Below, piece after piece: positions 12,001 through 15,000 of a stretch of 64,000 bases of DNA (positions are counted from its first letter, which is position 1; each line of letters starts with the position of its first letter). This stretch comes from Gammaproteobacteria bacterium (GTDB lineage Bacteria > Pseudomonadota > Gammaproteobacteria > JAGOUU01), in contig JAGOUU010000001.1 in NCBI GenBank assembly GCA_018061105.1, positions 8,425 to 72,424 of the forward strand, in the 5' to 3' direction. The position numbers were made by a program.

Positions 12001-15000
12001 TCCTGATGGATCCCCATGTACACCCAGTTTGGGCGATCCAAGTAATTGTATTTGTCCTAGTTTTAGTGGTAATAATATAACCCCAGGAACTTTTATGTCA
12101 GGCTACTCTCCGCAAAGTGGGTTTATTTATAATTTACCAAACCCTGGTGGCGAACAATTTAGCCGCGAAGTTGAAATAAATGGTGAAAAAGTTATGCTAG
12201 AAATGTCTATTCCCTGTTATGCCGCTAATGGTTGCACTGCTATCCATGGCACTTGGAAAGATTATTCACAGAATAGACAATTATTGTTTAATCAACCTTT
12301 AGATACATATAGTAATAATCCTGATCAACTGTGGATTTATCCATATGGTGCTTGGACAGATTCTTATAAAAAATATTATCAAGATTCTCAAAGCAATCAT
12401 CTGATCCCTTTAGGGCCTATGCAAAACTAGTAAAATTAGTAAAATTAGGAAGTGAATGTTAATGAAACGTAAATTATTATTTATAGCTTTAGTTGTTTCT
12501 TGTATTTCGCTAGGATCTTTTGCAGGTGTCTTAGATGAGTTTGCACCACCAATCAACGGTGATTGTGATGATGGAACCTATGCGTTACCATCATATTCTG
12601 CTGGAAGTGCTGAAGAGTGTGCACAAGCCTGCCTAAGTACTTCTGGTTGTACGGGCTTTAAGTATGAACAAAGAAATATGGTTGCAATATTGAGCTGTAC
12701 TCTAAGAACTGGACAAGGTTGTCGAGTTATGCCAGCTGCAGCAACGTTTTATCGTAAATTTCAGACCGACCTTCCAGTTAAAACTACTACAGGTGAAATT
12801 CAAACATTTAAAGGTTTAACAGATGGAGATTGCATAGATAATGATATTAAGGTAATTAATGTCACAACTGTGGATCAATGTGGCACCTTATGTACAGCCA
12901 CAGCAGGTGATTGTGTGGCATTTAGTTTTAGGGCAGGTGATGGTAGGTGTGTTTTTAAGTCCCCTATGTCAAGATGTATCTTTCAAGCTAATGGATATAA
13001 TTACTACTCTAAATACGGCGATCCTAGCAGCGGTGGTGGCGGAAGCAGTGCTGGTCCAGCCTGTGCTCCTGATGATCTAAATTGTCAACAACAATTGCGT
13101 TATCAACCAGATGGTACTCCAATCCCGGGAGGCGCCTTTCCGCAGGCTGATCAAAATAGTATGTTAATATACCCTCGAGTAAACCGAGGTGGTAATACAG
13201 CCCCACCTACTGATGTTTCTGATGCTATTTTAGGCCAAACATCATATTTAGCTCGCGTTATGCTACAAGCTAATGACGTTTTTCCGCCGTCGCATCTCTC
13301 TAGTCGTACTAGTGGTGAAACTTTTTTAAGTTCATTGATTCCCATTAAATACAACAGCAAGGCTCTTACAGAAGCTGCACTTAGAAGAAGTATTTTAGGT
13401 GCTGAAAGTTTTAGTACGGGTCAAAGTAGTGTCAATACTATGGTACGAGATTGGGTTGAGTATCATATGGATAACTACTGTGATCCACTTGCTGCAAAAG
13501 CTGGTATTCATAAATGTTATAATAGAGCTATTTCGCCTACAGACATTCAAAATGCAAAAATAGCAGGCGTGACACCATGGGAAAATATTGTAGACAATAA
13601 TATTCCCAAACCGTTTGCAGCTGATATAACAGCTACTACGTTATTTCAACCAAAAGTTCTCAATAGCGAAGCAGCAATGCGGTATATTTATAATTTAATC
13701 AATAATTCACCGACACCGATTGACTCTAAGCAAACAGATTATATTGTGCCAGATAAATATATAAACAAAGACTTAAATGTTCTTAAAGACGATGGTTACA
13801 ATGTTTATATGAAATATTTAGAGAGCCAATCTAAGAGTTCATTACTACAATATGCGATGATGCAAATATTTGCTGAGCGCTTGGAGTTAGACAATATTAA
13901 AGTGCCAGTTACTAGGTGGGATGCATCAGGTAAAAAAACGGTAACTTATGAAAAAACTTCTCGTCAAGGTTTACTAGAATTTGAAGCAACTAAAAGATTT
14001 TCTGACCCAGGCTGGTATGATCGTGTGCAGCAAATGCCGACACCAGCTTTACTAAAAGAATTAGCCTATATGCAATCTTTACAGCTAACCCTCGAGTACA
14101 AACGTTACGAACAACAACAAATTCAAACTGCTATCATGGCTTCTTTTGCCTCTGATATGTCTACTTTGATTCAAACTGTCCAAAATGCAGCTAGCGGGGG
14201 TGGGGCAATGTCACGACAAGATTTGATAGACCAAATTAAAAGTATAACGGGTGGTGGCCTTTAGTAGCTATACGCGCATCTTAATCACCTGAGCACTTAG
14301 TATCCGTTCAAGGGAAGCGGTCATAGCATCCAGGAGCATTTGACCGGTATGACAACTCCCGGGTGACTATCGTATGCACACATCTTCGTGTACGCTAGAA
14401 CGGGCGGCTGCCAGCCGCCCCTACATTAGATCGCAGTCAGAATCAGGTTTCTGAGATTGTTACAGCAGTGGCTATGCAGTTGATCTATCAACCTTTCATA
14501 GTCCAAAGAGATTAATTTTAGTATAGAGAGATTAATTTTGGTATGTTGAATGCAAGCACGATCTAATGTAGGGGCGGCTGGCAGCCGCCCGTTCTAGCGT
14601 ACACGAAGATGTGTGCATACGATAGATGGTCCCGGGTGAACGGCTATCACACATACGTGGACAGTCTTAAAACACAATTAAACTTAAGAAATATTATTTA
14701 CTAATTATGTCAGAGCTAATTGATTTTAAACTACGTGCAAAAAAAGTTACTTTGTTTTTTATTGGTCTTTATTTAGGTTATTTTATATTAAGCTATTTGT
14801 TTAATATAACCATGGCTAAGATAAATTATTTTGTTTATCCTGCATTTGTTTTGTTTTGGTTAAGTATATTATTAGATTCTGGTAAATTTTATTATCAAAA
14901 TTTAGTAAATAAGCGAATATCGCACAAAAATGAAAAGCTGGCATCTAGATTAAATTCCAAGTTACAGTATGTCTCTGTATTTTTTAGATTAGTTATTTTC

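Follow-up and report, generated by a model that had tools for sequence, protein, structure and literature searches.

What fills the gap between two genes of a secretion operon that stand 10-24 bp apart in related bacteria and 442 bp apart in one uncultured gammaproteobacterium? The gap, positions 14265-14706, belongs to a window of 64,000 nucleotides (the whole stretch of DNA analysed here: contig JAGOUU010000001.1, positions 8,425 to 72,424, of the Gammaproteobacteria bacterium assembly GCA_018061105.1), which is a chromosomal locus of Dot/Icm type IVB secretion genes in a genome of 35% GC. A first-pass annotation, made from the sequence alone, had singled the gap out as a GC-rich inverted-repeat element that could be mobile, a structured RNA or a recombination site. 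We give a probability of about one half to the reading that the gap holds a non-autonomous palindromic repeat element mobilised in trans, of the kind of a doublet of repetitive extragenic palindromes (REP; a REPIN-like arrangement) or of a miniature inverted-repeat transposable element (MITE). The parts of the insert are the following.

14265-14706, no strand: lineage-specific non-coding insert, the entire intergenic gap, 442 bp
14265-14356, no strand: outer-left segment, 48% GC, with an imperfect palindrome at 14318-14346
14357-14366, plus: first copy of the direct repeat TCCCGGGTGA, abutting the left arm
14367-14433, plus: left arm, with an imperfect palindrome (14367-14398), a REP-type palindrome (14402-14420) and CTAC (14421-14424)
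14434-14558, no strand: spacer, 125 bp, 35% GC, with an imperfect palindrome (14469-14505) and a tandem repeat (14499-14538)
14559-14625, minus: right arm, with GTAG (14568-14571), a REP-type palindrome (14572-14590) and an imperfect palindrome (14594-14625)
14630-14662, plus: second copy of the direct repeat (TCCCGGGTGA at 14630-14639) and a degenerate, truncated third copy of the arm
14666-14706, plus: AT-rich tail, 15% GC, immediately 5' of the orf482 start codon

A lineage-specific insert in a conserved gene order

The gap is the exact interval between two plus-strand open reading frames (ORFs), 12456-14264 for an IcmX-like protein and 14707-16155 for a membrane protein (orf482). Relatives were gathered via homologues of IcmV and of the IcmX-like protein, and their gene order is the same as in the window; between the icmX-like gene and the membrane-protein gene they have 11 bp (L024 and L025), 10 bp (L031), 24 bp (L032) or 17 bp (L033 and L034). 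Because only 10-24 bp separate the orthologous genes there, the entire 442 bp is lineage-specific. Five orthologous sites in relatives are empty of the insert, which bears out the insertion proposed at first pass.

The IcmX-like orthologues in these relatives are 44-52% identical to the protein of the window, and orf482 matches the neighbouring product in L024 at 32% identity (E = 4e-47); both flanking proteins are thus true orthologues. The flanking coding sequences are intact, since the C-terminus of the IcmX-like protein aligns to within 5 aa of its end with the 52%-identical orthologue. We also considered whether the insert had rewritten this C-terminus and found no evidence for it, the 3' end of the icmX-like gene having no significant similarity to the arm (p = 0.3-0.6).

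In base composition the gap departs from its surroundings, as had been claimed: it has 45% GC, with 57% in the arms, 48% in the outer-left segment and a host-like 35% in the spacer, against 35% for the window, and it is the most GC-rich of 13 intergenic gaps, the 12 others of at least 100 bp ranging from 12 to 34%. No comparable inverted repeat was found in the loci of the relatives. One of them, L030, has a 22-nt inverted repeat of 82% identity with a 146-bp spacer (3686-3707 and 3854-3875) between convergent dotA-like and dotL-like genes; this is possibly a small palindromic element of the gene cluster that has no relation to the insert.

The same species is present in at least three other sequencing runs. 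Contigs L002 (SRR17318456) and L003 (SRR17318455) are 97.5% identical to the window (97.4-97.7% at the nucleotide level over 9-10 kb) and end inside the icmX-like gene, while L043 (SRR26424707), a 1.6-kb contig with an identical 225-aa protein, ends before the insert site. Cluster look-ups returned no other member for the proteins encoded downstream of the insert.

Arm structure and the GTAG tag

The backbone of the insert is a pair of arms, 14367-14433 and 14559-14625, that are 100% complementary over 67 nt and have 125 nt between them (found by repeat search, the exact reverse complement being re-checked). Nowhere else in the 64 kb is there a comparable inverted repeat within 400 bp, the runner-up being an AT-rich one of 36 nt at 75%. 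The inverted arms described at first pass as near-identical over 76 bp are thus real, but they are perfect only over 67 nt and reach about 76-78 nt by imperfect extension: the 67-nt core continues outward on each side to a CCCGGG, across a linker of 3 nt (left) or 5 nt (right).

Each arm reads, from the outside inwards, as a 32-nt imperfect palindrome (CTATCGTATGCACACATCTTCGTGTACGCTAG), GAAC, a 19-nt GC-rich palindrome and CTAC. The 19-nt palindrome, GGGCGGCTG[C/G]CAGCCGCCC, has a central C/G mismatch; as expected from the first-pass description of an internal palindrome, it occurs twice in the window, and it does not occur in 100 shuffles. Folded as single-stranded DNA, either arm forms two hairpins (z = -2.6 and -3.5).

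Abutting the 19-nt palindromes, on the spacer side in both arms, stands the tetranucleotide GTAG (14568-14571 on the plus strand, 14421-14424 on the minus strand), which the first-pass annotation did not see; hence it also missed that the arms contain REP-type units in tail-to-tail order. REPs of the GTAG super-family are defined by a GC-rich imperfect palindrome with an unpaired GTAG, and a pair whose tags face inward is called a TT dimer (PMC3733652). The two units of the insert form such a tail-to-tail homodimer, with about 150 bp between the REP bodies.

The hairpin itself recurs in other bacteria. Its exact 21-mer has 19 matches in 185,579 species-representative genomes, a collection that excludes the source genome; the matching genomes all have 55-74% GC, and the similarity extends over only 21-26 nt. 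This 21-mer core is untagged, and yet 5 of the 19 unrelated genomes run on into the TAC that completes the GTAG tag, where about 0.3 would be expected by chance. In the JGI metagenomes, the 23-mer of GTAG plus core gave eight matches on contigs of 50-74% GC, none of them similar beyond 27-29 nt, and in one metagenome the tagged 23-mer lies on three different contigs with a 3' flank common to all. Tag completion in the 5 of 19 genomes, together with this dispersed tagged 23-mer, shows that the tag is no accident and that the hairpin is of a recurrent REP type.

The metagenome concerned is Ga0123353, in which L036 (116-142), L039 (1456-1482) and L041 (100-126) share the GTAG-tagged hairpin and the conserved flank gttgctttttgcctttttaatatgaattgct; these hairpins are a dispersed REP-type family in another organism, of 50-56% GC. 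The loci found with the hairpin 21-mer in Zoogloeaceae and Hymenobacter hold two or three near-identical copies each, only some hundreds of bp apart. These loci, L012 (464-488, 846-871 and 1147-1172), L022 (3254-3278 and 3324-3349) and L019 (265-289 and 392-414), are local groups of REPs that share the arm core of the window.

Flanking direct repeat, outer segments and spacer

The first-pass annotation had named 14350 and 14645 as places to look for target-site duplications, and a 10-bp direct repeat, TCCCGGGTGA, does lie close by. One copy abuts the left arm; the other is offset, however, standing 4 bp beyond the right arm and running into a degenerate copy of the arm. Among 200,000 random flank pairs, 8 (about 4e-5) had an exact direct repeat so placed and no shorter than 10 bp. 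The sequence that follows the right copy, 14640-14662, aligns with approximately the first 28 nt of the arm in direct orientation and with gaps. The gapped local alignment of 14357-14394 with 14630-14662 has p < 0.0005 with the 10-mer and p = 0.014 without it, and all three arm copies show CCCGGG, then a linker of 3, 5 or 7 nt, then CTATC. Because of the 4-bp offset on the right and the continuation into the degenerate third arm copy, TCCCGGGTGA falls short of a clean target-site duplication. On one reading it is a target duplication beside a decayed copy of greater age; on the other it is simply where a unit begins that is repeated three times with alternating orientation. Either would be typical of a cluster of REPs or MITEs, but the second removes the argument from duplication.

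The outer-left segment has an imperfect palindrome at 14318-14346 (CGGTCATAGCATCCAGGAGCATTTGACCG, p ~0.01 against shuffles), and as a whole (14265-14356) it folds no better than shuffles (z = -0.6). The 125-bp spacer is moderately structured (z = -2.5 to -2.9) and holds an imperfect palindrome at 14469-14505 (p < 0.005 against shuffles), as well as a tandem pair of 20 bp that is 85% identical (14499-14538). The 13-bp direct repeat reported at first pass within this spacer was recovered too: the exact repeat AGAGATTAATTTT at 14507-14519 and 14527-14539 falls largely within the tandem pair. The 13-mer is not enriched 5' of other icm/dot genes. The idea that it marks a PmrA site, a tandem TTAA repeat with a spacing of ~11 bp, was dropped, the spacing here being 20 bp.

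The only two-hexamer promoter match of the region, at 14549 to 14520 on the minus strand, lies in the spacer and is not above chance. An extended -10-like sequence, TGGTATGTT (14539-14547, plus strand), was recognised by eye only and is without statistical support. In the AT-rich tail 14666-14706 no clear Shine-Dalgarno sequence was found.

Coding capacity, folding and expression signals

The insert is non-coding, as first described (about 440 bp). No ORF longer than 40 aa was found in the 442-bp gap, and the longest, of exactly that length, lies at 14532-14654 on the minus strand; the expectation that no transposase ORF would be present in the insert thus held. A search of 1.84 billion protein representatives matched this 40-aa ORF to a single 2840-aa repeat protein, which was rejected as chance composition.

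Folding gives the long hairpin that had been foreseen: the 442 nt reach -216 kcal/mol on the plus strand and -213 kcal/mol on the minus strand, with z ~ -16 against shuffles. Rfam gave no match at gathering score over the window and only noise at E up to 10, the best match in the region scoring 17 bits against a threshold of 45 bits, and no tRNA or tmRNA genes were found. The element contains no integration host factor (IHF) consensus and, because no T-run (U-tract) follows its hairpins, no intrinsic terminator. Promoter-like sites number one in the region, against 2.5 expected from shuffles.

Origin of the insert

Several traits point to a non-autonomous palindromic repeat element. The core, 14357-14639 (283 bp), and the whole non-coding insert of 442 bp both lie inside the size range of MITEs (about 50-500 bp), and the terminal inverted repeats that mark MITEs are here 67 nt long and 100% identical. 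From the REP families come the GTAG-tagged palindromic unit and its tail-to-tail pairing, while insertion polymorphism, a trait of both MITEs and REPs, is seen in the five relatives in which the site is empty. Such an element would have landed at the 3' end of the icmX-like gene, within the Dot/Icm gene string. Its arrival could be explained by transposition in trans, by a REP-associated tyrosine transposase (RAYT) that recognises GTAG hairpins, or, provided that the 10-bp repeat is a genuine target duplication, by a DDE transposase. The perfect arms would suggest a recent insertion, or a recent conversion between the arms, and the decayed third copy an older event at the same spot.

A number of observations weigh against this reading, the chief of them concerning copy number. 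Every REP or MITE family is defined by its multi-copy status, and the arm was seen at one locus only in 64 kb. REPs of the GTAG super-family number tens to hundreds of dispersed copies per genome and have a cognate RAYT (a Y1 HUH transposase), whose gene usually stands between the same REPs, while MITEs have their inverted repeats in common with a related autonomous insertion sequence. A BLASTN search of the window with the 442 bp (word size 7) returned the insert itself and the arm-to-arm match, with no other copy of the arm in the 64 kb, and BLASTN in 'distant' mode found no match among PLSDB plasmids and INPHARED phages. No related element was found in the 185,579 representative genomes by a scan with the hairpin 21-mer, which covers the REP part of the arm only. 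A 24-mer over the junction of stem-loop and REP had no match in the JGI metagenomes, nor had a 24-mer of the outer arm in IMG/VR. No transposase or recombinase, RAYT included, was found among the ORFs of at least 120 aa of the window that were scanned with Pfam, which do not include six that lie further upstream, from 28 to 8636. Some 160 bp of the insert (14265-14356 and 14640-14706) lie outside the repeat and are unexplained, and both the 67-nt perfect arms and the REP spacing of ~150 bp exceed the usual sizes of REP doublets. Tyrosine transposases, with their IS200/IS605-type chemistry, are not expected to leave a flanking target duplication, which sits badly with the 10-bp repeat; this repeat in turn contains the palindromic CCCGGG and, given its 4-bp offset on the right, is possibly part of the repeat unit itself.

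Other explanations of the locus were weighed against the same data. That the insert is an artefact of assembly, a chimeric inverted join or a collapsed repeat, seems hardly credible to us. The source is a metagenome-assembled genome (MAG), and perfect inverted repeats are a known form of misassembly, but both flanks are the correct syntenic neighbours, and an artefact would not add ~290 bp of unique sequence (~165 bp of outer segments and the 125-bp spacer) at a gene junction. Moreover, an independent Logan assembly (k = 31) of run SRR11088367, a run for which no mention was found in the literature, reproduces both sides of the insert: one contig ends at 14396 and another starts at 14596, and they are identical to the window over 132 bp of the left side of the insert and 111 bp of the right. 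They stop exactly k-1 = 30 nt inside each arm, as a genuine inverted repeat forces, and because of this break both junctions of flank and arm are real in the reads. A one-off local rearrangement, in which a captured GC-rich or foreign fragment underwent inverted duplication by template switching at replication, so that a perfect inverted repeat arose with a short direct repeat where the copies meet, with neither a dedicated function nor other copies, is unlikely, though less so than the other rivals. It would account for an arm that is single-locus in all the data searched, for arms that are 100% identical, as a recent duplication predicts, and for the lack of a transposase nearby; the right-hand CCCGGG, at the meeting point of the inverted arm and the degenerate copy, with its 4-bp offset, also resembles a duplication junction. 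It leaves unexplained, however, where a 57%-GC arm in a 35%-GC genome came from and why this arm should contain a GTAG-tagged REP hairpin of canonical form, one found again in many bacteria; three alternating arm copies that differ in age are, moreover, what clusters of REPs or MITEs typically show.

A function in the cell was considered in two forms. As a cis-acting structured RNA, or a small RNA gene, the insert would regulate the messages of icmX-like, orf482, icmV and dotA; we regard this as improbable. GC-rich intergenic islands in AT-rich genomes are often structured RNAs, and the gap is such an outlier, with an extreme fold stability (z = -16) and a moderately structured spacer (z = -2.5 to -2.9); MITE copies of Coxiella, too, are transcribed as small RNAs (PMC5896051). 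Against this, Rfam gives nothing beyond noise at E values as high as 10, a perfect duplex of 67 bp is atypical of functional RNAs, no promoter or terminator signal rises above chance, there are no homologues in which covariation could be sought, and the site is empty in five relatives that have the same operon. Since it is absent from these five, the insert is not a conserved regulatory feature. The same absence tells against an invertible DNA switch, in which recombination between the arms would flip the 125-bp spacer and so toggle transcription of orf482-icmV-dotA, as it is not how a conserved control device would be distributed. The geometry would suit such a switch, with inverted repeats around a short AT-rich segment directly 5' of essential secretion genes, and the promoter match in the spacer (14549 to 14520, minus strand) is directed away from the genes downstream, so that inversion would turn it towards them; repeated recombination would keep the arms perfectly identical, and inversion of Correia elements has been reported (PMC10969869). 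The promoter-like count is nevertheless below the shuffle expectation (1 against 2.5), and no invertase or recombinase was found among the window ORFs scanned. The repeats are also longer than would be expected, since known invertons use repeats much shorter than 67 bp. We therefore hold a switch of this kind for very improbable, and think it just as doubtful that the lineage acquired a foldback switch that made the Dot/Icm machine phase-variable in an uncultured, intracellular-type gammaproteobacterium.

Possible effect on the operon

Returning to the preferred reading, a mobile palindromic element at this place may affect its neighbours. Co-transcription across the site is suggested by the 10-24 bp between the flanking genes of the relatives and by the co-directional gene string of the window. 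If the genes are co-transcribed, the element would form an RNA stem with a perfect duplex of 67 bp, most plausibly an RNase III substrate or a barrier to exonucleases, by analogy with the Correia (NEMIS) and ERIC elements. The stem might break the translational and transcriptional coupling seen in relatives, and not serve as an intrinsic terminator, for which a U-tract is lacking, so that an icmW-icmX-like message would be split from orf482-icmV-dotA, and the putative TGGTATGTT, picked out by eye, could supply a new promoter to the downstream genes. Through the lost 10-24 bp coupling and the 67-bp duplex in a read-through transcript, the insert probably alters the relative expression of components of the type IV secretion system (T4SS).

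Should the arm prove to be multi-copy, the insert would represent an undescribed REP or MITE family, with unusually long composite arms, in an uncultured Dot/Icm lineage; it would then be a useful strain marker and a case of a selfish palindrome breaking a tightly packed secretion operon. Beyond an effect on T4SS expression, it would be an ordinary kind of bacterial repeat with no bearing on an open question.

Genes of the locus

That the insert lies in a T4SS locus, as stated at first pass, is confirmed by the Dot/Icm type IVB genes around it. Pfam and NCBIfam identify IcmW, IcmV, DotA, DotM, DotD, DotC/TraI, DotB, DotI/IcmL, DotH and a DotG-like protein, and the genes next to the element form a co-directional string: icmW, orf522, icmX-like, element, orf482, icmV, dotA.

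10395-10844: IcmW (Pfam)
12456-14264, plus: PAN-domain IcmX/TraW-like gene, 602 aa, upstream flank, KBD64_00120 (Pfam PAN_1, 1.2e-10)
14707-16155, plus: polytopic membrane protein gene orf482, 482 aa, downstream flank, KBD64_00125
16232-16678, plus: icmV (NF038219, 6.6e-36)
16705-19017, plus: dotA (DotA/TraY, TIGR04346, 1.6e-77)

The proteins are annotated in the MAG under locus tags KBD64_00115 to 00140, on a contig of 80,245 bp, and the tags on either side of the insert, KBD64_00120 and KBD64_00125 (proteins MBP9721543.1 and MBP9721544.1), are consecutive. The product of KBD64_00120 has a weak TraW match in NCBIfam, and its orthologues in relatives are TraW-like. For the orf482 protein no Pfam or NCBIfam family was found, and a word-based homologue search returned only the protein itself. 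A counterpart of ~480 aa sits between the icmX-like gene and icmV in all relatives examined (L024, 2290-3750; L031, 2977-4398; L032, 5912-7333; L033, 5824-7296), and orf482 may be an unnamed, lineage-specific Dot/Icm component.

On the 3' side of dotA follow genes for a DotL-like coupling protein, DotM, a lytic transglycosylase, DotD and DotC/TraI-like and DotB-like proteins and, further on, for three DotI/IcmL paralogues, DotH and a TrbI/DotG-like protein. The three DotI/IcmL-family paralogues stand in succession at 27621-30034 on the plus strand and are 265, 237 and 228 aa long. From the Dot/Icm genes only, we infer a Legionellales/Coxiellales affinity of the host.

Other long gaps between ORFs of at least 120 aa, at 26806-27620 (815 bp), 4816-5453 (638 bp) and 23661-24205 (545 bp), have 32-34% GC; they probably hold small icm genes, and an IcmS homologue is found at the equivalent place in L024. 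Towards the other end of the window, two plus-strand genes, 53958-56645 and 56724-58463, encode large proteins with eukaryote-type cysteine-rich extracellular domains (Ephrin_rec_like at 1e-38, TNFR_ELAPOR1-like, NCD3G and He_PIG). They fall where the GC content of the window peaks (44-46% against 35%) and may be host-derived or effector-like.

Comparison with known repeat families

Correia elements of Neisseria are shorter than the insert, with terminal repeats of ~26 bp, a TA duplication and an IHF site. The insert has neither an IHF consensus nor sequence similarity to Correia elements or to the ERIC elements of enterobacteria. Both of these families are small, palindromic and co-transcribed with neighbouring genes; their inverted repeats are targets of RNase E or RNase III, and the elements can invert or provide promoters. 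The Correia (NEMIS) elements in particular set a precedent, in that RNase III cuts these inverted-repeat elements once they are transcribed (PMC10969869).

QMITE2 of Coxiella burnetii is ~190 bp long, has inverted repeats of 23-29 bp and many copies, is flanked by unique direct repeats of 7-9 bp and has gene 3' ends as insertion sites; truncated copies of it correspond to the GTAG REP described earlier from C. burnetii, and the icm/dot region of Coxiella is reported to be poor in QMITEs (PMC5896051). The insert shares with it a gammaproteobacterial host that bears a Dot/Icm system, its non-coding character, terminal inverted repeats, flanking direct repeats and the place at a gene 3' end. It differs in its core of ~260-280 bp, its 67-bp perfect repeats and its one known copy, and the likeness drawn here is one of architecture.

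The REP doublets known as GTAG REP dimers or REPINs owe their mobility to RAYT tyrosine transposases (Di Nocera 2013, PMC3733652; Bertels & Rainey 2011, PMC3337134), and the partners of a dimer usually lie 20-100 bp apart, with inter-REP distances of 34-36, 71 and 110 bp (PMC3733652, PMC3337134). Measured against these, the repeated unit of the insert is long (at least 67 nt against 20-40 nt), its REP bodies are widely spaced (~150 bp against 20-110 bp), and it has a 10-bp flanking direct repeat. In its plan, by contrast, the insert follows the GTAG REPs and REPINs: its unit, a GC-rich imperfect palindrome, ends on one side in an unpaired GTAG, two identical inverted units stand tail to tail and are able to fold as one long hairpin, a third, decayed unit follows in alternating orientation, and the whole is extragenic, 3' of an ORF and between unidirectional genes. 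As in some REPtrons, the REP unit adjoins an unrelated stem-loop in each arm. In Pseudomonas, the inverted repeats that flank two tyrosine-transposase genes likewise join degenerate GTAG units to unrelated stem-loops, and hundreds of such structures are present in those genomes (PMC3733652); the arm of the insert, a stem-loop followed by a GTAG unit, is composite in the same manner.

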